Shown piece by piece: positions 21,920 through 51,613 of a stretch of DNA of 64,000 nucleotides. The stretch's first letter is position 1. The number at the start of each line of letters is the position of its first letter. The DNA comes from a virus (Duplodnaviria > Caudoviricetes): positions 3,428 through 67,427 of the IMG/VR virus record IMGVR_UViG_3300031998_000072, one strand, 5' to 3'. Both the position numbers and the translations under genes were made by a program. A model generated the notes under the pieces. That model saw only the letters and a program-made list of their open reading frames with translations. It made no database searches and was not told the DNA's origin.

Positions 21920-23050
21920 TTACCTTCCTTTATTTTTCTTTTTAACACTTGCTGGCAAATAACCTGCAATATTATTTGAATTTTTTCCTAATAAATCATT
22001 TAAAGCCTCATTTACTCCTGCTTTAACACCTTTTTCAGCTTCAGTCATTAATGTTCCTGTATGCGATTTTACTGTATTTACCGCAGCAGTGTATAATTTG
22101 TCTGCTGCTTTATTTCCAGAATTTGTTAATCTATTATAGAAATCTCTATTTATGTCATCTGAACTTCTAATTTTTGATGCATTAGAATCTTGAGATGCTG
22201 TACTTTTTTTAACTTCCCACTGTTGCCCTTTTATACCAGTTCCACTTGGTTTAGTTGACGATTCTTTTACATCATTTTTATTTCCACCAAACATTTTTTC
22301 AGCTCTTTCTTTTACATCTTTTAAATGTTTCTCCTGATATGCAACATTAGTTTTTAGTTCTCTTTCAGCAGCTTGAGAATTAAAATTACGAGCTTGAGCT
22401 TTTGTTAATGCAATATCTGCGGTCTTCTTTTCTATATCGAGTTTATTATCTTTATTTTCGAAAGCTTTTGAAACAACACTTTTAGTAATATCCGGTAAAG
22501 TTTTAACGGCCAAATCAGCAACAAATTTACCAGTTGGACCTTCAAAGAATCTATCAGCTCTAGCTAATGCACCATTTGGATTTGAAGCAAGTGCATACTG
22601 TTTATTATATTCGGCTTGTAATTTAAGACGATCGATTGCTCTTTGAAGTTCATCGTCAGACATGTTTTTTGTTTTTCCAAAACCATGTCCACCTGGTCTT
22701 CCTTGCCTATCTAATTTAGCATTTTCTTTTTTATTAAGTCTATCAAACTTTCCTTGCTCTTTTCTAGCAAGTCTCATTGTTTTAGCATTTTCTTTAATGC
22801 CATGTCTTTCTTCCTTAGCAGATCTAGTAGCTTTTTCTTTTTTTGCTCTAGATTTTAAATCTGCTTTGTACTTCTGTGTGTTATAAGAGATTTTTGCTTT
22901 TGACCGTTCATCTCCATAACCATAATGTTCTCTACCTTCTGGCGTTAGAGAACCATCTTCGTTTTGAAACCGACGATGCCCCCATCTTTGTCCAGGTATT
23001 CCCCAATGGTATAGCTCGTCATCGAAGACATAATTTGGCTGTTTACTCAT
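21920..23050 (-). CDS. HWG/KWG-tag (DUF7211-like) protein, Lys-rich, putative internal virion protein
   Basis: ELYHWGIPGQRWGHRRFQNEDGSLTPEG; KNMSDDELQRAIDRLKL. Confidence 0.7.
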   Translation of the reverse strand: MSKQPNYVFDDELYHWGIPGQRWGHRRFQNEDGSLTPEGREHYGYGDERSKAKISYNTQKYKADLKSRAKKEKATRSAKEERHGIKENAKTMRLARKEQGKFDRLNKKENAKLDRQGRPGGHGFGKTKNMSDDELQRAIDRLKLQAEYNKQYALASNPNGALARADRFFEGPTGKFVADLAVKTLPDITKSVVSKAFENKDNKLDIEKKTADIALTKAQARNFNSQAAERELKTNVAYQEKHLKDVKERAEKMFGGNKNDVKESSTKPSGTGIKGQQWEVKKSTASQDSNASKIRSSDDINRDFYNRLTNSGNKAADKLYTAAVNTVKSHTGTLMTEAEKGVKAGVNEALNDLLGKNSNNIAGYLPASVKKKNKGR

Positions 23051-23068
23051 TTATGTCCTCCTTATTTA

Positions 23069-23296
23069 TTATAATATAGGAGCATTAAAAAATCTATTAG
23101 TATCCTCTGCTATATTATACTTTCTTACTTGTCCATTATTCTTGCCTACAAGATAAAATGGATCTATTTCTTTATTTGGAGTATCTGTTTCAAATGCTAC
23201 AAATAAATAGTCTTTTCCATAATCTCTGCATTCTTTTACTGTCTTTATTGTTGGTAATTCTTTCTTTAATTTATTAAGTGCTTCTTCTTTAGTCAT
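23069..23296 (-). CDS. putative immunity protein for the adjacent papain-fold toxin
   Basis: 75 aa, directly downstream of the toxin; DPFYLVGKNNGQV resembles Imm35/YrhB-type motifs. Confidence 0.45.
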   Translation of the reverse strand: MTKEEALNKLKKELPTIKTVKECRDYGKDYLFVAFETDTPNKEIDPFYLVGKNNGQVRKYNIAEDTNRFFNAPIL

Positions 23297-23307
23297 AATA
23301 TTTCTCC

Positions 23308-24510
23308 TTATTTATACTTATTTACTGTAGACATTGAAATTCCAAGAAGTTTTGCAACCTCTTTTTGTGTTTTTCCAGAAGATATCAACGATTTTATTCT
23401 AGATTGCTTAGCTTCAGTTAGTATCATATTCTTAGAATCTTTTTTCTTATCTTCTTTAAAATCATACCACTTATTCTTAAACCTTCCTTCACTTTCCCAT
23501 TTATTTTGAAGTGCTATTGATGCTTGATCGTCTATTTCTTTTATTTTCTTTGAATACATACCATTAGCTATTCTTTGGCCAATTGCAATTCCAGCAAAAG
23601 GCATTCCAGTAACAGAGGTCAGTAACGCCGCACTTATTCCAATTACCCATGGTTCAACTTTAGCAGCTTTTAATTTTGCTGAATTATATTTTATATCACC
23701 TATTACATCCTCTGAATAAAATTTCTTTGCTTTTTCTTCATCAATCTTTAAATTATCAGATCTTAATGTTTCAACATTATTTGCATTCTTCATTGTTTGA
23801 TTAAAGAATTTTTTATCTGCTTTTACTATAGTACCTGGTTGCGAATCAACAAAATAAAGTTGGCCATTTTTAACTTCATAATTAAATATATGACCTCCGT
23901 TTCCGCCCTTCCAATCAACAGCAATAAAACCTCTAGTATTATCGCCATCGCTTAATAATTTATTAGTCATGTCATTATATTCATCTTTTGTCATACCAAT
24001 ACTCATCATTTTTGAACTTTCATTACTTCTAGTAGCAAAAGTTCTTGCATCTTTTGAAATTTTAGCATAATTTGGTATAACTCTTCCATATGCGCCTTTA
24101 GGATTTGATAGATATGCTTGAGCTCCTCTTAGTGATTCTTGCGCTCTTACATCATGCCCTCTTCTTCTAAGTTCATATGACATTGTACAAAAAGCACAAT
24201 TTACATTTCTATTCAAACCATATTCAAAACCTTTATTACCACCATTTACTTTTTGTATATCTTTTTGTATATCTTTAACAAACGCTTTATCGCCTTTTAT
24301 AGTACCGCCGGTTTTATATCCATAACCGCTAGATTCTTCAGATCTTCCAAATATTCTATCATCCCCAATTCTTCTACGGCGTTTTCCTTCCTCGGTATAG
24401 GTTCCATCTTCGAATTGGTATCTTCTTTCTCCCCACTTCTGGCCAGGGATGCCATAATGGATTAAATAAGTAGGATAATCAGACATTAATTTATTCCTCC
24501 TTAATTCCAA
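23308..24510 (-). CDS. DUF7211-tagged papain-fold (Tox-PL / Gln deamidase-like) toxin with C-terminal HTH (likely start 24486)
   Basis: YLIHYGIPGQKWG tag; NCAFCTMSYELRRRGHDVRA (Cys), GGHIFN (His), YFVDSQ (Asp); C-terminal GKTQKEVAKLLGISMSTVNKYK. Confidence 0.75.
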   Translation of the reverse strand: MELRRNKLMSDYPTYLIHYGIPGQKWGERRYQFEDGTYTEEGKRRRRIGDDRIFGRSEESSGYGYKTGGTIKGDKAFVKDIQKDIQKVNGGNKGFEYGLNRNVNCAFCTMSYELRRRGHDVRAQESLRGAQAYLSNPKGAYGRVIPNYAKISKDARTFATRSNESSKMMSIGMTKDEYNDMTNKLLSDGDNTRGFIAVDWKGGNGGHIFNYEVKNGQLYFVDSQPGTIVKADKKFFNQTMKNANNVETLRSDNLKIDEEKAKKFYSEDVIGDIKYNSAKLKAAKVEPWVIGISAALLTSVTGMPFAGIAIGQRIANGMYSKKIKEIDDQASIALQNKWESEGRFKNKWYDFKEDKKKDSKNMILTEAKQSRIKSLISSGKTQKEVAKLLGISMSTVNKYK

Positions 24511-25103
24511 TCACTTTTCCATTTTTTCTGATGTAACTTTTTATTCTTTACATCATATGAATAATCTATCTGATTATATTTGCTTGGTTTATCAAGTTCT
24601 GAATTAAAATCTCCAACTTCCCATAGTATATAATTTAAGGAATTCATATGCACGTCCATATATCTTTGAACCACTTTTTGCGCTTCTTCTCCAGTATCTC
24701 CATTTACTAATTTATTCGCGGTCGCCAATGAAGTATTTACATATTTTTTAATATCGTTAATTGGATTCTTTCCTTCTTTTCTTTTGCTAGCTGCATTTGA
24801 ATCATGATATTCAGTTGGATTTTTATCATTAAAATCAAATCTTTTACTAGCTCTAATATTTTCTTTAACTGAATTATACTTAGAAACCCTACTGCGATTC
24901 CCAAATGGATCTGTTTCTTTCTCAAATTTTTCGAGTTTCTTTTTATACTTGTCAGATTTTTCTGATTTATCTAAGAGATTAGCATACCTTTTTATACCTT
25001 CTGGTGTAAGTGTCCCATCCTCATTCTGAAAACGTCTTACACCCCATTTTTGACCCTGAATGCCATAATGTATAAGATATGAATGGTAATTCGATTCACT
25101 CAT
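24501..25103 (-). CDS. DUF7211-tagged protein
   Basis: YLIHYGIQGQKWGVRRFQNEDGTLTPEG. Confidence 0.7.
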   Translation of the reverse strand: MSESNYHSYLIHYGIQGQKWGVRRFQNEDGTLTPEGIKRYANLLDKSEKSDKYKKKLEKFEKETDPFGNRSRVSKYNSVKENIRASKRFDFNDKNPTEYHDSNAASKRKEGKNPINDIKKYVNTSLATANKLVNGDTGEEAQKVVQRYMDVHMNSLNYILWEVGDFNSELDKPSKYNQIDYSYDVKNKKLHQKKWKSDWN

Positions 25104-30279: not shown

Positions 30280-30344
30280 TTTACTATAGATTTATGGTGC
30301 GTTTCTATAGTATCCTTACAAGTTTTAACATGCTTTTACAGCCT

Positions 30345-30409
30345 AGAAACTCCGCGAATACGTTCAGTATCAGCCGTAGCCAGTAGGGTTACTACCCACG
30401 GAGTTTCTA
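30345..30409. repeat. 11-bp inverted repeat enclosing two mini-hairpins
   Basis: TAGAAACTCCG / CGGAGTTTCTA. Confidence 0.7.
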
Positions 30410-30439
30410 CGCGGTAAAATGTAAATATAAAAATATCCA

Positions 30440-30500
30440 CCGGGGAATTTTCTAAGACCGCCGCGATGGCTATGGGGGGTATTATTTTCGAGACCCCCCT
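30440..30500. other. candidate cos / genome-end region
   Basis: GC-rich island (CCGGGG, GACCGCCGCGATGG, G6...C6 hairpin) in the largest non-coding gap, between the last replication-side gene and the first packaging-side gene. Confidence 0.45.
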
Positions 30501-30559
30501 CTAGGTACCTAATTCGATCCTCTACAGGGGATATCCTGGGTTTGATCCAAGATGCCTAT

Positions 30560-30660
30560 AAAAGCTCAAATTAACCTAAAAGGTGCAAAATTACTAAAAA
30601 TTAGTAAAAATTGCAAAAATTTTGATAAAAAGATTAAAATTCGTAAAATTAATTCAAAAT
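30560..30660 (+). repeat. phased A-tract array (bent DNA)
   Basis: 11 A3-5 tracts, most followed by TT, at ~9.6-bp mean spacing. Confidence 0.75.
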
Positions 30661-30696
30661 TGTTTAATTAATTGAATTAATTTTTTAATGAAACTA

Positions 30697-30859
30697 TTTA
30701 ATTATTGTTTAATTAAAATTTATTAGCATTAAAACAGTTATTTATACTTGAAAGGAGATTTCGCATGAACCTACACAAAGGCGTATGACAGATGATTTGA
30801 GGTTGACTATAAGCATAACCATAATAATGCTAATAAACTTTAATTAAACAATAATTAAA
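30697..30859. repeat. 35-bp inverted repeat (1 mismatch) flanking a 93-bp core
   Basis: 30697-30731 versus 30825-30859. Confidence 0.85.
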
Positions 30860-30896
30860 AGTTAAGAAAACGATTAATTATTGTTTAAAAAATGAA

Positions 30897-30940
30897 GATG
30901 GGGCCTTTTCTACGGTGCGGGGTAGTAGTATGACCCCATC
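30897..30940 (-). terminator. possible terminator of the RNAP operon
   Basis: GATGGGG/CCCCATC stem downstream of the 30977 stop, with a TTCATTTTTT run on the minus strand. Confidence 0.4.
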
Positions 30941-30976
30941 CTCAAGGGTATATAGAGAAGGTGTATGCCCCTATTA

Positions 30977-31249
30977 CTAGGGCTCCTCTATAGCAATGTA
31001 CTCGACCCCTTCTGGAAGTCTAGGATCAGGGTATTCTGCTGTGAGCTTGAGTATTTCTCTTACTGCATCATTACTAAACTTCTGATACAGTGTTGCTGGC
31101 ATCTCTATGTCTGTTTGAGACATACGGGCCAGGAACTCTTCACAACAGTACCCTTTTTGATGATCATAGTTTCTCCAATCAGTGTATTGAGTAAAGGGGT
31201 TGTAAGGGTTGTCTGTTGTAGATAGGAGGATTGCTTTTTCTTTTTCCAT
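30977..31249 (-). CDS. conserved hypothetical phage protein
   Basis: LSTTDNPYNPFTQY.DW..YD..KGY motif; RBS AGGAG. Confidence 0.7.
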   Translation of the reverse strand: MEKEKAILLSTTDNPYNPFTQYTDWRNYDHQKGYCCEEFLARMSQTDIEMPATLYQKFSNDAVREILKLTAEYPDPRLPEGVEYIAIEEP

Positions 31250-31263: not shown

Positions 31264-34200
31264 TTACTTATACTTATTGACAGTTGAGGTTGAAATACCA
31301 AGGAGCTCTGCTACTTCTGTCTGTGTGTGTCCTGCAGCAAGTAGGGCTTTGATTCTCGACTGCCTAGCTGGTGTAATGCTAATCTCTTCAATTGGAGTTG
31401 CATACTTTGTAACAGTATCCAAATCTGTGTTGTCAAGTATTTCTTTTAACACGGACTTCCTTATGGCTCCTGCCTGTATCGCTTCCCATTCTCTTGGAGA
31501 GATTGTAATAGTCTGTTTCTTAGCACCAACCATTAATCTAGCTCCAGAAATGGCTTGATTAGCATATTTCTTTTTCTTTTCTTTGTCTTCTTTGATTGAA
31601 GGATCATCTTGCATCTTCTGTTTAAGAATAATATTAGCTAAAGCTGTTGCTTTTCTTTCAGCAGGTTTGTTAATCAATGCTGTTTTAAGACTCTTCTTAA
31701 GAGAATCAACTTCTGGCTTATACTTTAAAGCTGCTGCTTCATTATAAGGCTGATCTTCAACTTCAAGACTTGCTTTTCTTGCCTTATTTGCAAGAGCTTT
31801 AAGTTGATTGGCATAATTTGCATATGTTCTTTCAACTTCTGTTCCAATATGATCAGGACCAGATAACAATTCTCTTGCATCTTTAGCTTCTGCCATCTTA
31901 GTAGACTTAATAGTTCTTCTTTCTTGAGTCCACATCGGCTTTCCATTCTCATCGAGAACAGGAACTTTCTCACCTTTAACTGTTTTCATTACAGGTTTAT
32001 TGTAATATTCTTCAGTTTCAATATAGCGTTTTTCTCCTGTTTCTGGATCGATAGCACCACCTTCTGATTGTCTAGCCAATCTTCTAGTGTTAACTATTTG
32101 TGGAGACTTAGCTCTTGAAATTATTGTTTCAGCTCCGCCACCTTGTTGGTACTTATCTTTTAATGCTTGAATGCCGTTTTCAATATACGATCTACGAATA
32201 TCAAGGTTATGTTTTTCAGCATCAATAACTACCATTGAATGCTTAACTGCTCTAACAATTTCACTATTTGAAGCACCAAACTGCTGCATGTCAGTTATCA
32301 AGTTTGTTACTTTGCCCATTTCAATTTGGCAAGTTTGATGCTTAGGCTTTGGGGTTCCATCAGGTTTAGCATAAATTCCTGTATCAAAGTCTTTCAAACT
32401 AGCAAATGCAGGAAGAGTATTATCAATCCATTTAATCTCTTTATTATTGTTTGGAATAACAATTACTGTATCACCATCAAAGTCAGCACCAGACAACTGA
32501 TTTGCAACATGTTTATTAATCATGACAGCATCTCTTGGACTAGTACCAATTATTGATTGGCATTCTTTATTTGAGTTATTAACAATAAGATGAGGAATTT
32601 CAAACTTTCCTCCATGAGGATATCTAACAAGAACTACTTCTTCGCCATCTTTAAAATTAGGAGCATAAATCTCATTATCTTTCAAAGTAACAGAAGGAAT
32701 GATAACAGATGTAGCTTGTCTAGGAAGCGCTGCCGCTTTCAATCTTACTGCATCTGAATCGCACTTTTCTGCAAATGGCTCTAATAATCTTTTCTTAACT
32801 GCTGGATTTGTAAGTTGATTAATTCTTTCAAATTGATCTTCCTTAAGTTTAAATGCTTCATCAAGCTGTCTTTTTACAAGAGGATTAGGTTGCTTAGCTA
32901 AGAATTCTGAAGCAAGTGACTTTTGCCATTTAGACCAGTCGCCTTCTTCATTTACTTTATTAATACAACTAAGTTTCTTTTCTCCAGTATGAATATCAAT
33001 ATACTCATGCTGTCCACCAGCAAGCAGTTTAGAATCAGCTTCATCAGAACCAAGTTCTTCTGAAAGCTTAACCGATGCACCAAATGGATTATCTTTGTCA
33101 ACTGTTCCTGTTATCTTTCCAGTTTCAGGATCTTGTGAAAGACCTTTCATCAACTTAAGATGTTCAAGCTTATCTGTGTATTTACCAACAGACTCATGCT
33201 TTGAATTGACAATAATATCAATACCTTTAGGAACATCTTTAAAAGCATCTGCATTATATACAGCCATGCCTTTAATATATCTAGTTCCATCAACTGCAAT
33301 ACGAACCTGAGCATATGTTGAATTCTGCAACGACAAATCCTGAACTCCAGGACGAAGCTCAATAAGACCATCTCTTTCAAGACCGCCATGAGCTCCATCA
33401 CGAATATAAATTCTATCAGAATTAATAGATTCAGGAGTTCTTATACCAAGCCAAGTCTTACCATTATCAATAGAATGATACTCACCAAGAGTTTCAAGCT
33501 TGTTATCCTCAAGTACAGCTTTAACAGCTTCACTGTAAGTTGTTCCAGGAGGACATAAAACCTGAATTGATGTCTTTTGGCCAGGTAATTGTACTTGTTT
33601 AGCAGAAATATACTTAAGTTCATATCCTTGATCTTTTAAAGCAGCAATTGCAGTATTGAGTCTGGTTCTTGTAACACCAGCTAATAGCTCAGCAGATTTA
33701 CCAACATCAATGAATTGCTTTTGATCAACGGCTTCTTTGAGCATCTTAGTAGTATTATCAATTGCTTCTGCTTTCTCTCTAGCATTTGGAGCTAACAGAT
33801 TTCTAACAGTAGACTCTTTTGATTTGTCGCCAAACATCTTTTCTGCAATTGCAGTATTAGACATTCCTTTCTCATGAAGCTTAAGTGCTGTATTGATCTC
33901 ATTTTGCTTCTTAGCTTTAAGAGATACGGAATTTCTAGCTCTTAACTCATCAACAGTCATTTCTTTAGGCTGAAGCTTTCCATTTTCATCTAATTTAGGA
34001 ATTCGGTCACCCTTTTTGATTCCTAACTCAGGATTATCTTTTTCAGCAACAGTCATTTTATAACTATTCTTTGGAGTTAACATCTTTGCTATCTCTTTTG
34101 GAGTATAGCCTTGGCCTCTAAGTTTTGCTACTTCATCACAAAACCAAGGTTCTCTATCATATTCGTTGTCTCCATAATCAAAACCAGCAAACCAATCCTC

Positions 34201-34296
34201 ACGCTGATAAGGATTGTCACCGGAACCCCAAGGATAACGACCAGAATGACGCTTAGTGCCATAGTGCATCAAATAATCTTCATTTTCACTCATCAC
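31264..34296 (-). CDS. single-subunit two-barrel RNA polymerase (YonO / cellular RdRP-like) with HYG tag and HTH domains
   Basis: DPBB-A motif DGLIEL...YAQVRIAVDGTRYIKGMAVY; DPBB-B motif VLVRYPHGG...QLSGADFDGD; N- and C-terminal HTHs. Confidence 0.8.
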   Translation of the reverse strand: MMSENEDYLMHYGTKRHSGRYPWGSGDNPYQREDWFAGFDYGDNEYDREPWFCDEVAKLRGQGYTPKEIAKMLTPKNSYKMTVAEKDNPELGIKKGDRIPKLDENGKLQPKEMTVDELRARNSVSLKAKKQNEINTALKLHEKGMSNTAIAEKMFGDKSKESTVRNLLAPNAREKAEAIDNTTKMLKEAVDQKQFIDVGKSAELLAGVTRTRLNTAIAALKDQGYELKYISAKQVQLPGQKTSIQVLCPPGTTYSEAVKAVLEDNKLETLGEYHSIDNGKTWLGIRTPESINSDRIYIRDGAHGGLERDGLIELRPGVQDLSLQNSTYAQVRIAVDGTRYIKGMAVYNADAFKDVPKGIDIIVNSKHESVGKYTDKLEHLKLMKGLSQDPETGKITGTVDKDNPFGASVKLSEELGSDEADSKLLAGGQHEYIDIHTGEKKLSCINKVNEEGDWSKWQKSLASEFLAKQPNPLVKRQLDEAFKLKEDQFERINQLTNPAVKKRLLEPFAEKCDSDAVRLKAAALPRQATSVIIPSVTLKDNEIYAPNFKDGEEVVLVRYPHGGKFEIPHLIVNNSNKECQSIIGTSPRDAVMINKHVANQLSGADFDGDTVIVIPNNNKEIKWIDNTLPAFASLKDFDTGIYAKPDGTPKPKHQTCQIEMGKVTNLITDMQQFGASNSEIVRAVKHSMVVIDAEKHNLDIRRSYIENGIQALKDKYQQGGGAETIISRAKSPQIVNTRRLARQSEGGAIDPETGEKRYIETEEYYNKPVMKTVKGEKVPVLDENGKPMWTQERRTIKSTKMAEAKDARELLSGPDHIGTEVERTYANYANQLKALANKARKASLEVEDQPYNEAAALKYKPEVDSLKKSLKTALINKPAERKATALANIILKQKMQDDPSIKEDKEKKKKYANQAISGARLMVGAKKQTITISPREWEAIQAGAIRKSVLKEILDNTDLDTVTKYATPIEEISITPARQSRIKALLAAGHTQTEVAELLGISTSTVNKYK

Positions 34297-34856
34297 TAAA
34301 CCCCTTTCTGAATATCAAGTATTCGTTTATCGAATAATATTATCTTTGCCATTATCGCTCTAATAACTGCAGGTTCTGGTATCTCTTCCAGAATTTCATT
34401 GTTTTGATAAATTCTCAATACAATCATTATGTCTTCTGGATTCTTCTTATACTCAAGACAAAAGAAAGCAGCATAAATTTCAAGCTGTTCCATATGTGCC
34501 GGAGTAACACCAGTTTTTAAATCATGAATTCTTAAAACATTATTTCTAAAAGTTATAGAGTCTGTTGTTCCAAATGCATTGTCACTAAAATATAAAACTC
34601 TTTCAGGAGACATTCTATAACCAATAGCATCATTAACATATTCGTTCAATGTTAAATGAGCTCTTGTGTTAGGAAGCTTCTGACCAAGCTCTATACACTT
34701 AGCTGCAAATGCATGTAACTCAGTTCCTCTTTCGACAGCCAAATAATTTCTGTATGATTCAACTAACTTGTCTTCATCATAATTTATCCAGCTGTATTTG
34801 CTTGCACTTAGAAAGGCGTGCTTACCTACCTGATTCCAGTGCTCGTTGAAGATCAT
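34296..34856 (-). CDS. PD-(D/E)XK exonuclease (DUF2800/Cas4-like)
   Basis: HAFLSAS...GTELH...FGTTDSI...IHDLKTG...QLEIYA. Confidence 0.7.
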   Translation of the reverse strand: MIFNEHWNQVGKHAFLSASKYSWINYDEDKLVESYRNYLAVERGTELHAFAAKCIELGQKLPNTRAHLTLNEYVNDAIGYRMSPERVLYFSDNAFGTTDSITFRNNVLRIHDLKTGVTPAHMEQLEIYAAFFCLEYKKNPEDIMIVLRIYQNNEILEEIPEPAVIRAIMAKIILFDKRILDIQKGV

Positions 34857-35174: not shown

Positions 35175-36401
35175 TTATCCCTCTCTTCTATTATATGCTA
35201 AGTTTTTTTCGCGAGCCAATTTTGCGAAAAATTTAGACTCATTAAAGTCTTTTTTCTTATTCAGTGTATTTCTAATACCATTATCAATAGATGATTTAGA
35301 AACCAAATGGTAATAATATAAATCCTTAAATGGTGTATTCCTTCTGTCAATTCTTCCAGCTGATTGTTTCATTGTCTTATAAGAATAATTCTGACTATAG
35401 AACACAGTTGTATCAGTCTCTATACAATTCCAAGCTTCGCTTCCTGAAGCATACTGAACAAGATAAATCCATTTGTCGCCTTTTGGAACTAACTCATGTT
35501 TATGACCATTCCATTCTTGGCATAGAATATCAATTTTCTTAGCGAAGTCTCTTAGCATCTCAAGCTCATAATCAAAGTTATAAAAAACAATAACCTTAAA
35601 TTTTTCTTCTATAATTTTTTGCAAAGCAATTAGTCGTCTAATATCACTGTTTACAACCTTTCTCATTAGATAGCATAATTGGCTTGCATTCTCTATCGGA
35701 CAATTATCATAAATGTTCCACCTATCTTTTACAATCAAATCATATTTCATTTTATCAAAGCCGCAGGTAATGAACATATGATGTTGAACTGTACTCTTGA
35801 CATAATCCATGTCAATCAATATTTGAGAACGATACAATATCAAGCGTCCAGTATTAATATACTTTTCAATCTTTGCAAAATTAGTAAACTTATTATAAAC
35901 TACATGTTGTTGACAAAAATCTGTTTTATTTCTATAGAAACCATTTGCAATGAATACTGGAATGTAATCAGACCATGTATCTCCTGGTGTAGCACTCAAT
36001 AAAATCCAATCATTATTCTTTGCAATCTTAATGAATGTTTTAGACCAAGCACCATAACCAACAACTCTTTGCTCATCAAATATAAAGAATGCATTTTCAA
36101 CATCTGCATATTTCTTAATATTATTCCATGAATCAATAACAGTACCTTCAACAAGAAGAAACCTTGAAAGTTCTTCTTCCCATTCTCGAGTATCTCTTTT
36201 ACGAGCTGTTGTTATAATATACAGTTTCTTAAATATCAATCTATCTTTCCAAGGATTTGTTTGTCCTTTACAAACCTTTTCATGGAAATATGCCAAAGCT
36301 GTAATAGATTTGCCTGAACCGGTGTCACCACACAAGATGGCACCGGTCTTCAGCATTTCTACAGCCTTTACTTGATAGTCGTCAAGTTTAGGCATTATCA
36401 A
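35175..36401 (-). CDS. SNF2/DEAD-like SF2 helicase
   Basis: GDTGSGKS, FIFDEQR, LLSATP, QSAGRIDR. Confidence 0.88.
   Translation of the reverse strand: MIMPKLDDYQVKAVEMLKTGAILCGDTGSGKSITALAYFHEKVCKGQTNPWKDRLIFKKLYIITTARKRDTREWEEELSRFLLVEGTVIDSWNNIKKYADVENAFFIFDEQRVVGYGAWSKTFIKIAKNNDWILLSATPGDTWSDYIPVFIANGFYRNKTDFCQQHVVYNKFTNFAKIEKYINTGRLILYRSQILIDMDYVKSTVQHHMFITCGFDKMKYDLIVKDRWNIYDNCPIENASQLCYLMRKVVNSDIRRLIALQKIIEEKFKVIVFYNFDYELEMLRDFAKKIDILCQEWNGHKHELVPKGDKWIYLVQYASGSEAWNCIETDTTVFYSQNYSYKTMKQSAGRIDRRNTPFKDLYYYHLVSKSSIDNGIRNTLNKKKDFNESKFFAKLAREKNLAYNRREG
35190..35215 (-). promoter_or_regulatory. variant promoter CTCGCG-N14-TATAAT
   Basis: Same spacing as 11 other sites; lies upstream of VRR-NUC, the exonuclease and the RNAP. 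Confidence 0.55.
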
Positions 36402-44715: not shown

Positions 44716-45111
44716 TTATGCTTCCGTATTAAACGGTGCTTCTTCAGCTACTTCTTCAGTAGTTTCCTCTGTTACTTCATCAGAGCTCTTGCTTCTGAAA
44801 TAGTCAACACCCTTCTTGACACCCCAAGCCGCAGCAGCACCAAGCGGACCTCCGACCGCAAGGCCGAGTCCAAAAGTCTTTGGATTGTTCTCAACAGCGT
44901 TGATACCCTTTCCAACATACTTAAATGGACCCCACCAATTAAGTCTCTTTTCCTGCTTTTCTGCTTTCTTTGCAGCTCTATCGATCTCAATAGCCTTGAC
45001 CTTTTCGTCAGCCTTCTTGACCTCTTCGATCGCAACGTTTGCCTCAACTTCCTGCTTTTTTGTGTTAGCCATAATGCTACACCTCCTTAATATTTTAAGC
45101 TTTTCAGCCAT
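44716..45111 (-). CDS. membrane protein (likely start at MANTK, 45072)
   Basis: RBS AGGAGG before MANTK; TM FGLGLAVGGPLGAAAAWGV. Confidence 0.65.
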   Translation of the reverse strand: MAEKLKILRRCSIMANTKKQEVEANVAIEEVKKADEKVKAIEIDRAAKKAEKQEKRLNWWGPFKYVGKGINAVENNPKTFGLGLAVGGPLGAAAAWGVKKGVDYFRSKSSDEVTEETTEEVAEEAPFNTEA

Positions 45112-45135
45112 TATACGTTAATATTTTTTTGCGAA
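45110..45135 (-). promoter_or_regulatory. TTCGCA-N14-TATAAT promoter
   Basis: Exact consensus, upstream of the RBS. Confidence 0.75.
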
Positions 45136-45137
45136 TA

Positions 45138-45932
45138 TCAGTTAATTTTCGCATGCGGACATTTACTAAACATTACATAAACCATTACAATTCCTTCATC
45201 ATTAGGACCTCTTTCGAGACATTCCTGTGTAGAATACTCAATTTTGCCATCATGATAATACTGCCAGCCAATATCCCAACCAATTTCAGCTATAGGAATA
45301 TTAACATTAGGTATCATTTCATGGAACATATTCATTGAACAGTAATCCTGGTCTAACATTAGGTTATTTGCTTCTAAAAGACCCTTTTCGAAGTCAATAA
45401 GACGACAATCATACTCAATTCCAGTGTCTACTTCCTTAAAATGGAGAATATCACCGAGATGATCCCTAATATATTTAGGCTTTTCACCCTCTTCAAGAGC
45501 TGGTCTACGATCAATTATCTTCTGAATTTTCTTCTGCTCTTCGGGATCTTGAGGCAAATACTTGATAGTTTCCTGTCTATAATCATCAAATACAGCTCTT
45601 GTTGTGTCTAACTGCTCTTTTGCAATTATCAACGCTGCTGAAAGAGCTGCTGCACGCTTAGCTGAGATGACATTTGATGCTACGATTGATGTACAAGTGC
45701 CTAAACCGACAACTCCAGCCCAGATATACTCAGGCCATACAAGTTTAATAATGTCTTTTGTTGTCAGATTCTCATCTTCATGTTCTCTAAGAATATCAAC
45801 AGCATTCTTAGTAGCAATTGATGAGCATACGGCTGTACCTGCAACTCCTACAACACCTAGGATGCCAAATATCAAGTTGGCATGCTTATTGAAGAATGAC
45901 TTTCCGGCTGCTATTATTCCATTATTCAACAT
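45138..45932 (-). CDS. DUF6353-like membrane protein (paralog)
   Basis: Two Gly-rich TMs; SMNMFHEMI...GWDIGW. Confidence 0.65.
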   Translation of the reverse strand: MLNNGIIAAGKSFFNKHANLIFGILGVVGVAGTAVCSSIATKNAVDILREHEDENLTTKDIIKLVWPEYIWAGVVGLGTCTSIVASNVISAKRAAALSAALIIAKEQLDTTRAVFDDYRQETIKYLPQDPEEQKKIQKIIDRRPALEEGEKPKYIRDHLGDILHFKEVDTGIEYDCRLIDFEKGLLEANNLMLDQDYCSMNMFHEMIPNVNIPIAEIGWDIGWQYYHDGKIEYSTQECLERGPNDEGIVMVYVMFSKCPHAKIN

Positions 45933-46218
45933 CCTTTACCTCCTTAGGATCTGTAGGAAAGAGGTCCATGACATCTTCCAAATATCCAGCTACCTCAGGA
46001 TACATTTTATTGTAGGTAAGGAATGCAATACCTGATGCTCCTGCACAAGTTATGGTTGAAAGCAACTTAACCTGTCCTCTTGTAAGTCCATCAGGAAATA
46101 CATGATTAACAAGCACTGTTGCCCCCCATCCTGCCATCCAGCCAAGCAATACGGATGTACCACATGACATTACCATTGAGCCTACGCCAACAATTACTTC
46201 TTTTGTTTCTCTTTTCAT
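45922..46218 (-). CDS. membrane protein
   Basis: Two hydrophobic segments; RBS GAAAGGAG. Confidence 0.65.
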   Translation of the reverse strand: MKRETKEVIVGVGSMVMSCGTSVLLGWMAGWGATVLVNHVFPDGLTRGQVKLLSTITCAGASGIAFLTYNKMYPEVAGYLEDVMDLFPTDPKEVKDVE

Positions 46219-46264
46219 GTTGTCGCTCCTTTCAAAAAATAAAATAAGAACTGTTACGTTCTCT

Positions 46265-46290
46265 ATTATACCCTATGTTTTGTTTGCGAA
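46265..46290 (-). promoter_or_regulatory. TTCGCA-N14-TATAAT promoter
   Basis: Exact consensus. Confidence 0.75.
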
Positions 46291-46291
46291 A

Positions 46292-46543
46292 TTATTCTTC
46301 ACCTTTAGTCGCTCCTGGATCTTCACCTTTAGTCGCTCCTGGATCTTCACCATCATCATATAAAATTATAAACGCCTGATCGCTGCATCCTGGACAAGCA
46401 TATCCCTTCGTTTCTATAACATTTATAACTTTGCAGTGCCACTGTTTCTGTATTATATCAAGACGCTGTTCTAATACATGAGCTACTGGTTCATAACTTA
46501 ATATCTGTTCCGCTACAATAGTTTTTATCATATTTACCCCCAA
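46292..46543 (-). CDS. hypothetical protein
   Basis: ORF ending in a duplicated EDPGATKG. Confidence 0.6.
   Translation of the reverse strand: MGVNMIKTIVAEQILSYEPVAHVLEQRLDIIQKQWHCKVINVIETKGYACPGCSDQAFIILYDDGEDPGATKGEDPGATKGEE
46296..46351. repeat. 24-bp tandem duplication (2.3 copies)
   Basis: TCTTCACCTTTAGTCGCTCCTGGA x2 plus TCTTCACC. Confidence 0.9.
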
Positions 46544-46890
46544 TAAATGATCTTATGATACTCATTATTGTAAACATCATTAAAATTTTCCCAATAATCA
46601 GACATCTTGTACTCCGGTTGAGTGGCGTAGTTAATATGTGCATCTTTAAAATCATAGTTATTAATATCAGCCTGATAGAGATCAATAAATTCCCTAAACT
46701 CTTCAGCAGTAAAAACTATTTCTGGATAACAACAAGTAAATGCTATCTCCGGATCGTTATCATACTCTTTTAACTTATCATGATCCACCAACCATTTAAT
46801 TGACTTAAGATTATCCAATTTAACATAGCCGTAAAACTTACCAAATTCCCAATTGTCTTCTCTGCAACAAATTGTAGGTCTATATCCCAT
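46534..46890 (-). CDS. hypothetical protein
   Basis: RBS GAGGTG; FYGTKLYGY-like motif FGKFYGYV. Confidence 0.65.
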   Translation of the reverse strand: MGYRPTICCREDNWEFGKFYGYVKLDNLKSIKWLVDHDKLKEYDNDPEIAFTCCYPEIVFTAEEFREFIDLYQADINNYDFKDAHINYATQPEYKMSDYWENFNDVYNNEYHKIIYWG

Positions 46891-46901
46891 AAAATATCAC
46901 C

Positions 46902-47279
46902 TCAATATCTTTTTTCTTCATCCTTTTCGCCACCCTCTCTGTGCTTATTAAATATTTCTACTGCATACTTAAACGGTCTTGATTTAGGATCGCTAGGTGA
47001 CCATTTACTAGTGTAATCTTTATCACTAAACTGAGTTTCGAGGCGCTCTTCATAATGTTTATCACGAAGCATAATAACAATCGCACCATTGTCAGAAAAC
47101 TTTTCAGTAGAAAAATACTCAACAGTGTCCATAAGATGATCAAATACCTCTTCCCAATTATCAAGCATTTCTTGCCGTTCACCATTACCGATTAAAACAT
47201 TCTGATCATAAGCATTTGTTACATATACTTCAAATTTCTGAAAATATTGAGCTGTATTTAAAATATCCCATAAAGTCAT
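46902..47279 (-). CDS. hypothetical protein
   Basis: In-operon ORF. Confidence 0.65.
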   Translation of the reverse strand: MTLWDILNTAQYFQKFEVYVTNAYDQNVLIGNGERQEMLDNWEEVFDHLMDTVEYFSTEKFSDNGAIVIMLRDKHYEERLETQFSDKDYTSKWSPSDPKSRPFKYAVEIFNKHREGGEKDEEKRY

Positions 47280-47434
47280 TCTGTATCACCTCGCATATTT
47301 TCATCGTACCATTCAAGCATAGTCGGTAATTTATACATCGGCGTATCTGCACTGATACTTTTAATGTAATTTGTATATTCACGCTCAAGTTTATAGTATC
47401 TCTTAAATAGTATTATCAATTCTCTGTCAGTCAT
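47276..47434 (-). CDS. small hypothetical protein (52 aa, not in ORF track)
   Basis: MTDRELIILF...; ATGA overlap with the downstream gene. Confidence 0.55.
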   Translation of the reverse strand: MTDRELIILFKRYYKLEREYTNYIKSISADTPMYKLPTMLEWYDENMRGDTE

Positions 47435-47777
47435 TGTCCGTACCGCCTTTCATCTTTGCACCGCATTTCTCACAAAAATTCGGAAAGTCAGTAAAGGTAA
47501 TAATGATAGTGTCTGCATTATTGCTACCCTTTTCATAGGAACAAAAAGGACAACAAATTCTATGAACTCCATTATTGTCTTCTGAAGTAATTATCCACTC
47601 GCCTTGCTTTGGCTCAACTGCCGGGGCAGTATCGATAATATCTAATACTTCTTCCGTAGGAATAGTTTTTCTGCCCTTGCTATACGGGTGATAGTATTTC
47701 TCTCTGACAAAAAACTGTTCTATCGCCTCTTTCATATACTTACGGCTGATTAAATCGTTGTTCATTCCGCACCTCAC
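47427..47777 (-). CDS. Zn-ribbon small protein
   Basis: GEWI...CPFC...CEKCGAKM. Confidence 0.65.
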   Translation of the reverse strand: MRCGMNNDLISRKYMKEAIEQFFVREKYYHPYSKGRKTIPTEEVLDIIDTAPAVEPKQGEWIITSEDNNGVHRICCPFCSYEKGSNNADTIIITFTDFPNFCEKCGAKMKGGTDND

Positions 47778-48100
47778 TCAATCGTCAAAATATCATCAGG
47801 CTTAATCTTAGGTGTTGGAAGAATCGTCCAATACTTTACTCCATGAACCTTAAACAATTTAGGATAAGCACTGGTTTCCTGAACCATATAAAATCCTGCA
47901 TCCTTGATTGTAAAGTTATGTTCCTTATCGTACTTATCAACCAATTCTAACTTAGCGCCTTCTTCATACCAACGAGCAATCTGCAAATGCCAATCCGACT
48001 CCCTTGCACAGTCCATACAGACTATGCAAGTGTCGTTCTCATTAGGCTTAGGTGCGAGAATATCATCTACAGCATTCCACTGAAATGTATATGACTCCAT
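47774..48100 (-). CDS. hypothetical protein
   Basis: Coupled ORF; ends VKYW..LP.PK, reminiscent of DUF551. Confidence 0.6.
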   Translation of the reverse strand: MESYTFQWNAVDDILAPKPNENDTCIVCMDCARESDWHLQIARWYEEGAKLELVDKYDKEHNFTIKDAGFYMVQETSAYPKLFKVHGVKYWTILPTPKIKPDDILTIE

Positions 48101-49401
48101 TACCTCGCCTCCCTAGTTCTGATTGTATAAGAGTCTGCCTTGCCAAACGGATGCTCAAACTTCTTATGAATATCAATGGTCATTCCATCGACAGTGATGA
48201 AAATGTTATCCGTCTTAGAATCCTTCATCTTCTCAAGGACAATATTAAGCAGAGCGAAAGTGTCAAAGTTCTTAGGATTCGATGCTATTCTTCTACTCTC
48301 TGCAACTGACTTAAGACCCTCATTTTCATCTTTAAGATTGGCATTCTCATCTCTAAGACGAGAATTATAGGCCTCAAGATCAAGCTTCTGTTTAAGAAGT
48401 TCATCATATCTATCAGCCTGCTCCTGAGCTGTCTTAAGAAGTTCATCATATTTAGCACTAAGTTTATCGCACTCTTCTTTAGATTCCTTATAGACATCAT
48501 ATGACTTTTTTGAAATTATCATCTTATCTACATTTGGCTTCTCTTCAGAATTATCAACGATATACTTCTTGCCAGCCTTTTCAATAGCTTCCTTAACCTT
48601 TCTAAGCTTAACAACGCCAAAGGTACGGATCTTAAGAAGCTCTTTATCTGTCTTCTCTACAAACTGTCCAACAGTCTGAATTCTGGCTCTATAAAGCGGA
48701 TTCGTTAATCTTGCATCGTCAATAATATCAACGAGAAGTGTGCTAAACCAATCTTCTGAATAATTCTTTCCAAGCATAATAAGTGATGTCTTTTCTTCCA
48801 TAGTTTTCCCCTTCGCTTCTTCAATATCTTTATTACCCCAAGCCCAATATATGCCGTTCATCTGGAATGGGTTATCTGATCTATCATAGCCAAATACTAT
48901 TGCTGCTTTTTCTCTAGTTTCTTTATCTGGAAAATATCTCTGTGTCTTATCATCTCTAATAATATCAAGATATGTCCAGTACATTGCAAGATACCTGCAC
49001 GCATCATATGTAGCCTGTCCATGAGGAAGCCGTGTATTATAGTCGCATCTAGCTTCATGAATAGCCTGCTCTGTCATAGATTTGAATTTCCTAAGACAAT
49101 CATATGACACATTAATGTTTTTCTTGTATTCTACAGCTCCATGCCATACAACACTGTCTTTTACAAGCTTGCTCCAAATATCATACGAGATCTGCATGCA
49201 ATGCCACTTGTACAAACCACGCTGTAATGTAGTTTTTGGCACATTGTGGAAAGTATCAAACAGACCGCATCTTGCAGGAACAAACTCTTTGACATTAGTC
49301 CAACCATGTTCTTCAATGAACTTCTTTCTTACTTCCAAATACTTTACATAAACGTCGTGCTCGGCTACCAAATTGTTAGTTGCAAATCTACTTACTGCCA
49401 T
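48100..49401 (-). CDS. protein with RNA polymerase alpha-CTD-like domain and coiled coil
   Basis: DDARLTNPLYRARIQTVGQFVEKTDKELLKIRTFGVVKLRKVKEAIEKAG parallels the alpha-CTD consensus (L...I.T..DL.....EL.K..N.G.KSL.EI). Confidence 0.65.
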   Translation of the reverse strand: MAVSRFATNNLVAEHDVYVKYLEVRKKFIEEHGWTNVKEFVPARCGLFDTFHNVPKTTLQRGLYKWHCMQISYDIWSKLVKDSVVWHGAVEYKKNINVSYDCLRKFKSMTEQAIHEARCDYNTRLPHGQATYDACRYLAMYWTYLDIIRDDKTQRYFPDKETREKAAIVFGYDRSDNPFQMNGIYWAWGNKDIEEAKGKTMEEKTSLIMLGKNYSEDWFSTLLVDIIDDARLTNPLYRARIQTVGQFVEKTDKELLKIRTFGVVKLRKVKEAIEKAGKKYIVDNSEEKPNVDKMIISKKSYDVYKESKEECDKLSAKYDELLKTAQEQADRYDELLKQKLDLEAYNSRLRDENANLKDENEGLKSVAESRRIASNPKNFDTFALLNIVLEKMKDSKTDNIFITVDGMTIDIHKKFEHPFGKADSYTIRTREAR

Positions 49402-49426
49402 AATTTGACTCCTTTTTAAATATCAA

Positions 49427-49690
49427 TTATTTAACTACTTCAAACGGATCTTCTTCAAGAATTACTTTTACCTGGTCTTCTGAAACCTGAAGAGCATCAG
49501 CAATCTCTTTTGCTGTCTTACCATCCATTTCCATCTTTCCAAGAATCCTTCCCTTCTGAAGAGATGTGTGAATGAAATAAGACATAAGCATTGTCTGCTC
49601 CTCATTGAGTGTTCCCATGATTGTTTGGACACTCCATGCTTTCTTCAGCTGCTCTTCAGCTTTCTTTGTTTCGTTCTTAATATCATCCAT
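49427..49690 (-). CDS. small HTH-like protein
   Basis: GKTAKEIADALQVSEDQVKVIL. Confidence 0.6.
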   Translation of the reverse strand: MDDIKNETKKAEEQLKKAWSVQTIMGTLNEEQTMLMSYFIHTSLQKGRILGKMEMDGKTAKEIADALQVSEDQVKVILEEDPFEVVK

Positions 49691-49692
49691 TT

Positions 49693-49896
49693 TTATTTCT
49701 CCTTTATCATATCATAAATATACTCAAAAGCATATGAAAGATTAAGAATCGTTTCAGAAACTTTTAAATCTTCTTCATAAGTATTACAATTATTTGCTAT
49801 TGTGTCCAATTCAACCTTAATAGTATCAAGAATATCGCCAAGTCTTTCAGCTGCTTTCTTATTTACATCATCCATTTTTCTTTTCCTCCATATCAT
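49693..49896 (-). CDS. hypothetical protein
   Basis: In-operon ORF (likely start MDDVN). Confidence 0.55.
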   Translation of the reverse strand: MIWRKRKMDDVNKKAAERLGDILDTIKVELDTIANNCNTYEEDLKVSETILNLSYAFEYIYDMIKEK

Positions 49897-50074
49897 ATTC
49901 CCAAGGATTTCCTATCTTACACTCAGTAATTACAGATGCTGATTCATCTCGACCTGGATACACAACAGGCTTTGAAAATGGACAATCAAAACATGATTCA
50001 AACTGATCACAAAATCCTTGTACTAATTTGACTGCTTCTTTTGCACTATTAAAATTTATTTTAATATCAGCCAT
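49868..50074 (-). CDS. hypothetical Cys-containing protein
   Basis: FC...C.DCPF motif. Confidence 0.55.
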   Translation of the reverse strand: MADIKINFNSAKEAVKLVQGFCDQFESCFDCPFSKPVVYPGRDESASVITECKIGNPWEYDMEEKKNG

Positions 50075-50303
50075 TATTCTTTTCCTCCATCAAATCCTTA
50101 TTTTCAACACGCCAAGCACATCTATAACACAGCTGTTTGCAAATACCATTCTGTAATGCTTCTCCACACATCATATATTTAATTTTGTCAGATGTGTCTT
50201 CGCTTTTTGGCTCAACGTCTCTTTCCATAGATAAAGAAGCAATCCAACTTACCATCACTATAGTTGCACAAATTATTGCACAAATTATCACCGATTCACT
50301 CAC
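50067..50303 (-). CDS. membrane protein with Cys motif
   Basis: N-terminal TM; C...C...C..CAW. Confidence 0.6.
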   Translation of the reverse strand: MSESVIICAIICATIVMVSWIASLSMERDVEPKSEDTSDKIKYMMCGEALQNGICKQLCYRCAWRVENKDLMEEKNNG

Positions 50304-50752
50304 TTCTTTCCCTCCTTATCAGCGGACTCGAACCAAGTCTTAAATGCCTTTCTACAATCAGGGCACATATCAACATATTCACCACCGCCCATTTTTATAA
50401 ATATATCATGGGTCTTCTTGTCTTCAATAAATTCTTTAGAATAATTTTTCTCTTCTCCTGGGAAGTATGGTTCGTCATGCTTAAATACACACTGAATGTC
50501 ATTCTTCTCGAACTTCTTCTCATAAAGCTTACCACATCTGTCACACTTCTTTGCTTCCATTTTGTTTGTCTCCTTTTTAATATCATTTAAATTAATTTTG
50601 TAGGTGTAGTCATAATAAGGGTTAAATGTTCCCCTCATTTGCATCATATCGATTTCATTCCTAATATAATCAGTAAAATTATCCGTACCGATATAAAAAC
50701 TAGGCGGTCTAATACAATTACTGTCTATTGTAAAATACGGCATAAATATCAC
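50300..50752 (-). CDS. hypothetical Zn-binding protein
   Basis: KCDRCGK...DMCPDC. Confidence 0.65.
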   Translation of the reverse strand: MIFMPYFTIDSNCIRPPSFYIGTDNFTDYIRNEIDMMQMRGTFNPYYDYTYKINLNDIKKETNKMEAKKCDRCGKLYEKKFEKNDIQCVFKHDEPYFPGEEKNYSKEFIEDKKTHDIFIKMGGGEYVDMCPDCRKAFKTWFESADKEGKK

Positions 50753-50976
50753 CTCTCCATTTTAGCACCGCAATCTGGACAATATGTAAATCCATAAGAG
50801 AAGCGAATATGGTATATTACTTTACAATTACTGCACTGAAGATCTCTTAAATGCCAATCTCTTCCACCATCATCAGTAGTTGCATCGGAAATATCAATCC
50901 ATTTCGCTTTTAGCCTTGTCTTACTTACTTTTACCTTTTTGACTTTTACTTTGTCACACCATGGCTTTTGTTTCAT
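50749..50976 (-). CDS. Zn-ribbon small protein
   Basis: KWI...CSNC...YCPDCGAKM. Confidence 0.65.
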   Translation of the reverse strand: MKQKPWCDKVKVKKVKVSKTRLKAKWIDISDATTDDGGRDWHLRDLQCSNCKVIYHIRFSYGFTYCPDCGAKMER

Positions 50977-50981
50977 AAATA

Positions 50982-51320
50982 TCAGTCCTCCCTAACTTCA
51001 TGCGCTTCAATTAATATTGAAAATTCTTCTTTTACTCCTTTGGAAATATCATCATCTACGAATGCTGTGATGTAAGCAATTCCTTCATCTTCGTTATCGA
51101 AAAGATCGTCTTCAGACAAGTATTTGCCTTCTTTTACATCTGCACATACAACTTTTTTGTTTTTGCTATCTTTTAAGAAAGCATGAATATCATCAATAAC
51201 ATACTTATTAGCATATTCAACTGCTAAATCTTTGTCATTACATACATGAGCTATACGAGTATATGCTTCGTTTAATTCGACATTTTTATAAATTGCAATT
51301 ACTAAATACACTTTTTTCAT
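50982..51320 (-). CDS. hypothetical protein
   Basis: In-operon ORF. Confidence 0.6.
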   Translation of the reverse strand: MKKVYLVIAIYKNVELNEAYTRIAHVCNDKDLAVEYANKYVIDDIHAFLKDSKNKKVVCADVKEGKYLSEDDLFDNEDEGIAYITAFVDDDISKGVKEEFSILIEAHEVRED

Positions 51321-51610
51321 TTTGGCATATTCTCCATAATTTCATCAATAACATCTGTAAGTTTTTCGAACATTTCATCTGGCGAAATATCATCCTTATA
51401 ATCAGTTCCTTTATATAAATCTAGCATATACATCTGAGGATCATCGCCATAATGTTTAACAACTATTCTTATACCTTCACCTTTGTTCGGCGGAGTATCC
51501 ATTAAGAATAATCTGTTTCTGAATTCCCATTCGTCTGTGTCTTCATTGTAAATATCATACTTATCCGAAAACCAAGTAAATAAGTCTTTCATTCTAGCCA
51601 TTATTATCAC
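51317..51610 (-). CDS. hypothetical protein
   Basis: In-operon ORF with RBS GAGGTG. Confidence 0.6.
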   Translation of the reverse strand: MIIMARMKDLFTWFSDKYDIYNEDTDEWEFRNRLFLMDTPPNKGEGIRIVVKHYGDDPQMYMLDLYKGTDYKDDISPDEMFEKLTDVIDEIMENMPK

Positions 51611-51613
51611 CTC

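Follow-up and report, generated by a model that had tools for sequence, protein, structure and literature searches.

The characterised phage relatives of the two-barrel RNA polymerases, YonO of the Bacillus prophage SPbeta and gp64 of Thermus phage P23-45, are DNA-dependent enzymes (PMC5467207, PMC10770324). YonO transcribes the late genes of SPbeta as one operon from a single start site (PMC5467207). Neurospora QDE-1 and plant RDR2 are eukaryotic enzymes of RNA silencing with RNA-templated or dual-template synthesis, and QDE-1 is described as copying both DNA and RNA (PMC9508822). A further putative RNA polymerase was reported by Koert et al. as the signature gene of a phage group which includes cluster BI Streptomyces phages, other actinophages, Lactococcus phage 1706 and Faecalibacterium phages; they found an HHpred match to RNA-dependent RNA polymerase (RdRP), a DxDGD loop and helix-turn-helix (HTH) domains at both termini, and discussed neither promoters nor virions (bioRxiv 10.1101/842583). 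The same protein is encoded by the open reading frame (ORF) at 31264-34296 of the stretch analysed here, 64,000 nucleotides (the window) which make up most of the 67.4-kb IMG/VR virus record IMGVR_UViG_3300031998_000072. The DNA of the window, from a rumen phage, is present in bovine-gut metagenomes. We favour the reading that the protein is a promoter-specific, single-chain, two-barrel DNA-dependent RNA polymerase which finds its own promoters without a sigma factor and is perhaps delivered by the virion. Its catalytic activity, DNA template, promoters and virion location are what we infer. New here are a candidate promoter array and some indications of transport of the enzyme within the virion.

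By its sequence, the window polymerase is a full-length member of the known Lactococcus phage 1706 orf75 / PHROG 4291 family and does not represent a new one. Residues 2-1009 match positions 5-904 of the 909 in the PHROG 4291 profile (E 1e-300), which carries the label "RNA-dependent RNA polymerase". Nearly all scored database clusters (7996 of 8000) match the protein at E<=0.001, far beyond chance. A translated search retrieved 250 phage records with 34-43% identity across the whole length, from phages of Arthrobacter, Gordonia, Streptomyces, Curtobacterium, Microbacterium, Rhodococcus, Lactococcus and Faecalibacterium and from human-gut siphovirus contigs. Compared with phage records by Megablast, the gene had no match; the relatives are visible at protein level only. 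PDB chains searched by sequence, using either the protein alone or a profile, yielded nothing significant, P23-45 gp96 reaching E 0.78 at the DFDGD loop. The expectation of an earlier note on this DNA that automated pipelines would label such a protein only as an HTH protein holds for most of the 250 records, in which the homologue is annotated as 'helix-turn-helix DNA-binding domain protein' and nothing else. The 1706 orf75 product, the putative RNA polymerase of FP_oengus and the HTH-protein family of actinophages resemble the window polymerase over the full length (34-43% identity, E 3e-155 to 0) and in domain order, DFDGD loop and terminal HTHs, and their loci resemble its locus in having an exonuclease gene upstream, a PHROG 4303 gene downstream and the genome end adjacent. 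The window copy differs by an insert of 39 residues behind the first HTH, which its close relatives share. It is otherwise a typical member of a family predicted computationally, for which the literature searched offered neither biochemistry nor promoters, and it adds to the family one more example and a duplicated C-terminal HTH.

The ORF is composed of 1010 amino acids (aa) when read from GTG and of 1009 when read from the ATG one codon in (34291-34293). The GTG overlaps the stop codon of the upstream exonuclease gene (TAGTGATG) and is preceded by an AAAGGGG ribosome-binding site. The ATG is probably the real start, because the database cluster representative identical to the window protein has 1009 aa.

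What the earlier note had observed, the signatures of both catalytic barrels in this one chain, was confirmed by the ORF list and the motifs, and its core interpretation as a two-barrel polymerase is supported by the fold matches. All the quoted motifs are present, namely RDGLIEL (308-314), YAQVRIAVDGTRYIKG (328-343; quoted there as DG...QVR....KG), RYPH (558-561) and SGADFDGD (602-609). In an alignment of 30 sequences with 48-91% identity, D309, G310, Y328-R332, K342, G343, R558, P560, H561 and S602-D609 are invariant. The full-length AlphaFold2 model built on this alignment has a mean predicted local distance difference test (pLDDT) score of 75.8 and is disordered only at residues 1-49 (pLDDT <50) and in a few loops. 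Foldseek against PDB placed QDE-1 first (E 5e-8), followed by the P23-45-type non-virion polymerase (8f72, 8f5m), RDR2 and P23-45 gp96, while bacterial beta-prime subunits stayed below significance (E > 0.01). The crAss-like gp66 was not among the fold lists, which is no evidence against relatedness. On re-alignment by VIA, model residues 284-843 matched RDR2, QDE-1 and gp64 at Z 13.5-14.2 with 340-385 residues aligned, and residues 528-624 matched the double-psi barrels of p97/Cdc48 N-domains at Z 10-11 with a root-mean-square deviation (rmsd) of about 1.8-2.3. From these matches both barrels are predicted, one of the two points on which the earlier note had let its proposal stand or fall. 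[quoted passage not shown] Its core (residues about 285-845) would hold a metal-binding DFDGD loop in one barrel and invariant basic residues in the other, arranged as in QDE-1, RDR2 and gp64. R332 and K342 are candidate catalytic basic residues of the first barrel, and the conserved helices behind the second barrel may form a bridge-helix-like region. The invariance of the DFDGD loop, and with it of dozens of residues in the core, speaks for selection acting on catalysis. An inactive polymerase relic which now serves only as a DNA-binding regulator would agree with the fact that databases recognise HTH domains only, but the invariance extends across thousands of clusters and makes a relic barely credible.

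Among the known enzymes, QDE-1 and RDR2 are the best structural matches and share the DxDGD loop. Gp64 (PDB 8f72, 8f5m; PMC10770324) is likewise a single-chain two-barrel phage polymerase; VIA aligned it at Z 13.8-13.9 over 353-362 residues within 284-842 of the model, with about 15% identity. It has about 590 aa, and the alignment begins at window residue 284, which leaves the N-terminal HTH/winged-helix region and a tag-like peptide outside. YonO (PHROG 8308; PMC5467207) is also a single-peptide two-barrel phage polymerase, but constitutes a separate family: it matches PHROG 8308 at E 0 and PHROG 4291 not at all, has no full-length homology with the window polymerase, and its PHROG scan lists no HTH family. 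Alignment of the window-polymerase family profile with the single YonO sequence by hhalign gave nothing. The relation to YonO which the earlier note had drawn is detectable at the DFDGD barrel, where residues 534-681 and no others match PHROG 8308 (E 2.8e-7); YonO is neither the nearest relative nor a member of the same family.

The name given to the family in RefSeq and PHROG raises the alternative of a true RdRP whose product would be antisense or double-stranded RNA. Among solved folds the nearest, QDE-1 and RDR2, do belong to RNA-dependent enzymes, the former with its double template range, and there is a weak match to Pfam RdRP (PF05183), which covers only residues 596-650 and remains, despite the strong fold resemblance, at 15.4 bits below the gathering cutoff of 23.8. 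The label, however, derives from homology alone, YonO and gp64 use DNA, and the gene belongs to a double-stranded DNA phage, its product bearing DNA-binding HTH modules and its genome a promoter-like array. We consider a true RdRP very improbable.

The HTH-like segments quoted in the earlier note, GYTPKEIAKML, GMSNTAIAEKM and one at the C-terminus, are present; VIA supports the fold of the second and Pfam HTH_7 that of the last. The N-terminal region (residues 51-285) was modelled separately on an alignment of 29 relatives (pLDDT 90.1). The sequence pattern of the first HTH repeats that of the second, and alone it matched no solved fold. The second HTH resembles the three-helix DNA-binding domains of DeoR, SorC, ParB and KorB (VIA Z 6.0-6.4, rmsd 1.5-2.1), and its conserved residues in the 30-sequence alignment are G144, S146, N147, I150, E161, S162 and R165. 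The following region resembles the winged helices of TFIIIC tau138 (eWH), TFIIE, MarR, GntR and PadR (VIA Z 6-8.4). Foldseek of the N-terminal model found nothing at E<=0.001, and the HTH and winged-helix matches came from VIA alone; as Z values of 6-8 are middling, these folds are likely rather than proven. The C-terminal HTH lies below the sigma-70 cutoffs (Sigma70_r4_2, 20.6 against 25.7 bits; Sigma70_r4, 15.6 against 24.1). No sigma region-2-like domain was found among the fold matches of the N-terminal model, a list from which absence is not exclusion. The 'sigma-like' recognition of the earlier note can thus be kept loosely, for the fused HTH and winged-helix modules, and not in the sense of a region-2 domain. 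Together, the two HTH modules and the winged helix at the N-terminus and HTH_7 at the C-terminus would let the enzyme locate its own promoters with no sigma factor. The last 37 residues of the polymerase are about 70% identical (67-70%) to the C-terminus of a 400-aa papain-fold protein of the same phage; the two copies, at 31267-31383 and 23311-23427, both on the (-) strand, both end in STVNKYK. A search for such a copy among the other proteins encoded at about 100 related loci revealed it in the window genome only.

In phages T7, T3 and SP6, a single-subunit polymerase recognises, as one chain, a fixed promoter repeated along the phage genome. These enzymes have a Pol A-family fold, and T7 promoters form a single continuous block. 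The working principle proposed here is the same; the fold is unrelated, and two or three boxes at fixed spacing take the place of the block. The repeated element was first spotted in the intergenic gaps of the early region. TTCGCA-N14-TAWAAT occurs in nine exact copies against 0.21 expected by chance, on the coding strand only and always with a spacer of 14 nucleotides (nt). A position weight matrix (PWM) scan of the window gave 12 sense and 0 antisense sites, nine of them between 56 and 59 kb, a further two at 45-46 kb and the last at 35 kb, and no site in the half with the structural (late) genes. A sigma-70-type scan of the array region was near chance, and the spacer measures 14 nt, not 17. 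Terminator hairpins abut several copies, forming promoter-terminator cassettes around tiny early genes. The TTCGCA-N14-TATAAT(G) elements are candidate promoters of the window polymerase, which would recognise them before the early genes, the replication genes and its own operon.

One bovine-gut metatranscriptome contained only contigs of related phages, which are unable to reveal transcript starts. In an RNA-library contig of a related phage, 56111 is joined to 56344 and 56374 to 56524, precisely where two promoter copies lie, an arrangement that suggests recombination at the repeats as a means of exchanging early-gene cassettes. One metatranscriptome contig ends some 5-15 nt downstream of the TATAAT at 58909-58914 and is not usable as evidence.

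The motif recurs across related phages of Actinomycetota and Bacillota. In a pattern-free count of gapped motifs, TCGCA-N16-TAATG was the top pair in Arthrobacter phage CapnMurica (GC 49%; 8 copies). In Streptomyces phage Bing (GC 59%), TCGCA-N22-GACCC came first (11 copies) with TCGCA-N16-TAATG just below it (7), outranked by its own extension because the conserved block there reaches about 40 bp. Among five IMG/VR relatives (G001-G005), the exact TCGCA-N14-TAWAAT was present in one, and looser and pattern-free searches recovered variants in G001 and G004. The same motif was found in G003 (12 copies), G001 (7), Qui (15) and Rickmore (5), and variants of the same geometry in 1706 (11, with TATAGT replacing TATAAT), Camille (5), G004 (4) and Scap1 (6). 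In G003, one copy occupies the equivalent spot about 1 kb upstream of the polymerase gene. Control phages lacking the polymerase (phiC31, L5, sk1, TP901-1 and SPbeta) had 0, 0, 0, 0 and 1 copies in 294 kb. As the boxes and their spacing are kept across hosts of two phyla, they are most simply read by a phage-encoded protein. The polymerase, which has four DNA-binding modules, is the group's signature conserved gene (bioRxiv 10.1101/842583) and would be the likely reader.

In phage N4 a virion RNA polymerase starts early transcription. The crAss-like phi14:2 gp66 and P23-45 gp96 are also carried in the particle and start early transcription, the logic proposed here; unlike in these virion polymerases, virion presence of the orf75 family rests on one database label. 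The depositors of the phage 1706 record (EU081845) gave orf75 the label "structural protein", and likewise orf7, which bears a DUF7211-like LQHRGVIGMRWG. The orf75 product is 34% identical to the window polymerase over the full length (E 3e-155). These labels reportedly come from mass spectrometry of particles. The disordered N-terminus of the polymerase resembles the DUF7211 peptide YLIHYGIxGQKWGxRRFQNEDG, and H11, G13, R16, S18-Y21 and G24-G26 are invariant in the 30-sequence alignment. A tag hidden Markov model (HMM), built from 37 canonical tags all belonging to non-polymerase proteins, matched 67 of 88 polymerase N-termini among 5083 ORFs. The literature search found no paper mentioning DUF7211. 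Three further proteins of the phage, encoded between terminase and portal, carry the tag (Pfam DUF7211 E 2.4e-6, 1.7e-4 and 5e-4; tag HMM E 1e-15 to 1e-17) and may be loaded into the head. Since the polymerase operon has the enzyme's own type of promoter, a first dose of enzyme would be needed if the host cannot read it. In the weaker steps of the proposed mechanism, the N-terminal peptide would be a diverged DUF7211 head-loading tag, and some of the enzyme would be packed in the capsid, enter the cell with the DNA and start transcription. The peptide is at best a diverged relative of DUF7211, and the case for virion delivery is about evenly balanced. The complete chain, in which a virion-carried, factor-independent family uses its fused HTH and winged-helix modules to read a two- or three-box promoter (TCGCA / TTACA / TATAATG) conserved between phages of two bacterial phyla, enters the cell with the DNA by means of this tag and begins early transcription independently of the host enzyme, is proposed tentatively and is rather doubtful as a whole.

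Several observations weigh against the reading we favour. The motif was not seen in three of 14 polymerase-encoding genomes (Pippin15, G002 and G005), and its perfect TATAAT could be read by the primary sigma factor of the host, perhaps together with a phage activator on the TCGCA box, by analogy with the MotA box of T4. For the virion step, Pfam DUF7211 scores the first 44 aa of the polymerase at E 0.034 and 14 bits against a gathering cutoff of 27, the individual tag HMM matches are marginal (best E 0.003; window polymerase E 0.072), and the gene sits among replication genes. A rival reading is a late-gene polymerase in the style of YonO, absent from the virion and made in mid-infection, which would act from one promoter or by read-through of joined genome ends, with the host RNA polymerase, possibly aided by a phage activator, reading TTCGCA-N14-TATAAT. 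YonO itself provides the precedent of late transcription from a single start (PMC5467207), the window gene has the probable genome end and the late genes just downstream of it, with all these genes on one strand, and the late region has no repeated motif, as a single promoter would imply. The repeated sites have a perfect -10 hexamer, and an early protein with an alpha C-terminal-domain-like region could act on the host polymerase. Against a host reader stands the TCGCA box, whose 14-nt spacing stays fixed in phages from two phyla that range in GC from 36 to 59%, and the block of about 40 bp in Bing is unlike host promoters; the polymerase operon itself bears the motif, and the 1706 record lists orf75 as structural. 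On these grounds the late-gene polymerase is an unlikely explanation, though one to be taken seriously. The early protein (433 aa, 48100-49401, (-) strand) matches Pfam RNA_pol_A_CTD at residues 230-274 with 29.5 bits against a cutoff of 23.8, and could act on the host polymerase or serve the phage enzyme.

The polymerase gene is located among genes for a primase-polymerase (1277 aa), an annealing protein, a helicase and an exonuclease. A helper of replication, supplying primer or R-loop RNA at the origin and not messenger RNA, would suit this position and the iteron-like repeats nearby (40810-41038). It is nevertheless improbable, for the phage already encodes a dedicated primase-polymerase, and four fused DNA-binding modules and a dozen gene-proximal motif copies would be left unexplained. 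The repeats lie in the gap upstream of the primase-polymerase gene and consist of three tandem GTCCCGTTTTT units followed by two inverted CAACGGGAC units, which look like an origin or an operator.

The gene order exonuclease-polymerase-PHROG 4303 is shared by 1706, CapnMurica, Bing, Pippin15, Camille, Qui and Rickmore; among the isolated relatives examined, Scap1 is the exception, with a gene annotated as DNA helicase upstream of the polymerase. In the records of Pippin15 and Camille, the exonuclease homologue bears the annotation 'Cas4 family exonuclease'. Present among others in 1706, CapnMurica and Bing, the PHROG 4303 gene lies directly 3' of the polymerase in 32 of the 33 loci having it, often with an overlap of few bases, and its 90-aa product is a plausible candidate for a partner or cofactor of the polymerase. 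In isolated relatives the trio is within about 50-450 nt of the right genome end, many related metagenomic contigs end 150-450 nt past the polymerase module, and phages related to 1706 have cohesive ends. The non-coding stretch behind the module probably corresponds to the region of the physical genome end (cos) in a permuted contig.

Elsewhere in the window, a protein of 599 aa (18822-20621, (-) strand) is a fusion of head protease (Peptidase_S78) with major capsid domain, like 1706 orf10. Two paralogous DUF6353 proteins are encoded in the middle region (42406-43386 and 45138-45932, (-) strand; E 1e-30 and 4e-25). The early region possesses a tRNA-Gln (anticodon TTG; 55602-55676, (-) strand) with very high depth in DNA and RNA runs, which probably stems from the conserved tRNA sequence of other organisms.

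Table 1. Positions of the polymerase gene, its predicted parts and the associated elements in the window.
Feature	Position	Strand	Basis or remark
RNA polymerase gene	31264..34296	(-)	ORF list and translation; PHROG 4291; fold matches
Tag-like peptide, residues 8-33 (YLMHYGTKRHSGRYPWGSGDNPYQRED)	34198..34275	(-)	disordered in model; conserved
First small HTH, residues 51-75 (GYTPKEIAKML at 63-73)	34072..34146	(-)	helices 52-61 and 66-72 in both models; pattern conserved in the alignment of 29 relatives
Lineage-specific insert, residues 76-114 (39 residues, beta hairpins)	33955..34071	(-)	in the alignment of 29 relatives, only in this phage and close relatives
Second HTH, residues 124-176 (GMSNTAIAEKM 144-154; ESTVRNLL)	33769..33927	(-)	VIA matches
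Winged-helix domain, residues 177-265	33502..33768	(-)	VIA matches; aligned stretch from about residue 170
First (beta-type) barrel, predicted, residues about 295-365	33202..33414	(-)	within residues 284-843, which align to QDE-1, RDR2 and gp64; invariant D309, G310, Q330-R332, K342, G343
Second (beta-prime-type) double-psi barrel, predicted, residues 528-624, with RYPH and SGADFDGD	32425..32715	(-)	p97 N-domain matches; Pfam RdRP; PHROG 8308
DFDGD loop	32470-32484	(-)	within second barrel
Post-barrel conserved helices, residues 653-696 (GKVTNLITDM ... HSMVVIDAEKH)	32209..32340	(-)	invariant run M660-H696; helices 653-672 and 677-696
C-terminal HTH, residues 972-1010	31267..31383	(-)	Pfam HTH_7 at 975-1010, E 1.1e-11
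Upstream exonuclease gene	34296..34856	(-)	PHROG 3953, E 7e-73; apparently same operon as polymerase
PHROG 4303 gene, 90 aa, motif TTxDNPxNPF..W..D...GY; invariant T..DNP.NP...W...D...GY	30977..31249	(-)	directly downstream of polymerase
Non-coding stretch after polymerase module, 697 nt	30280..30976	(.)	no ORF; AT-rich inverted-repeat core, GC-rich flanks
Candidate promoters, 11 TTCGCA-N14-TATAAT(G) sites	within 45105..58937	(-)	exact-pattern count and PWM scan
Array sites 1-6	58904-58937, 58478-58511, 58119-58152, 57788-57821, 57526-57559, 56972-57005	(-)	
Array sites 7-11	56521-56554, 56342-56375, 56021-56054, 46260-46293, 45105-45138	(-)	
Promoter-like variant CTCGCG-N14-TATAAT	35185..35218	(-)	ahead of the 103-aa, exonuclease and polymerase genes; PWM 30.5 bits
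Three DUF7211-tagged genes between terminase (25100-26848) and portal (20648-21913)	21920..25103	(-)	Pfam and tag HMM
Tagged gene, 200 aa	24501-25103	(-)	DUF7211
Tagged gene, 400 aa	23308-24510	(-)	papain-fold Gln_amidase 'toxin' domain (E 6.5e-11) and copy of polymerase C-terminal HTH
Tagged gene, 376 aa	21920-23050	(-)	DUF7211

Two-barrel polymerases carry out all cellular transcription, normally with many subunits and separate initiation factors. The family described here is very large, and most phage records mislabel its members as simple DNA-binding proteins. With a candidate promoter and with relatives that can be cultivated (1706, CapnMurica, Bing and Qui), the question comes within reach of the bench. 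If the reading we favour is true, a single chain of 110 kDa, able to recognise a defined promoter as well as to synthesise RNA, would offer a minimal model of promoter recognition for this class of enzymes, and possibly a compact orthogonal expression tool for Gram-positive bacteria.

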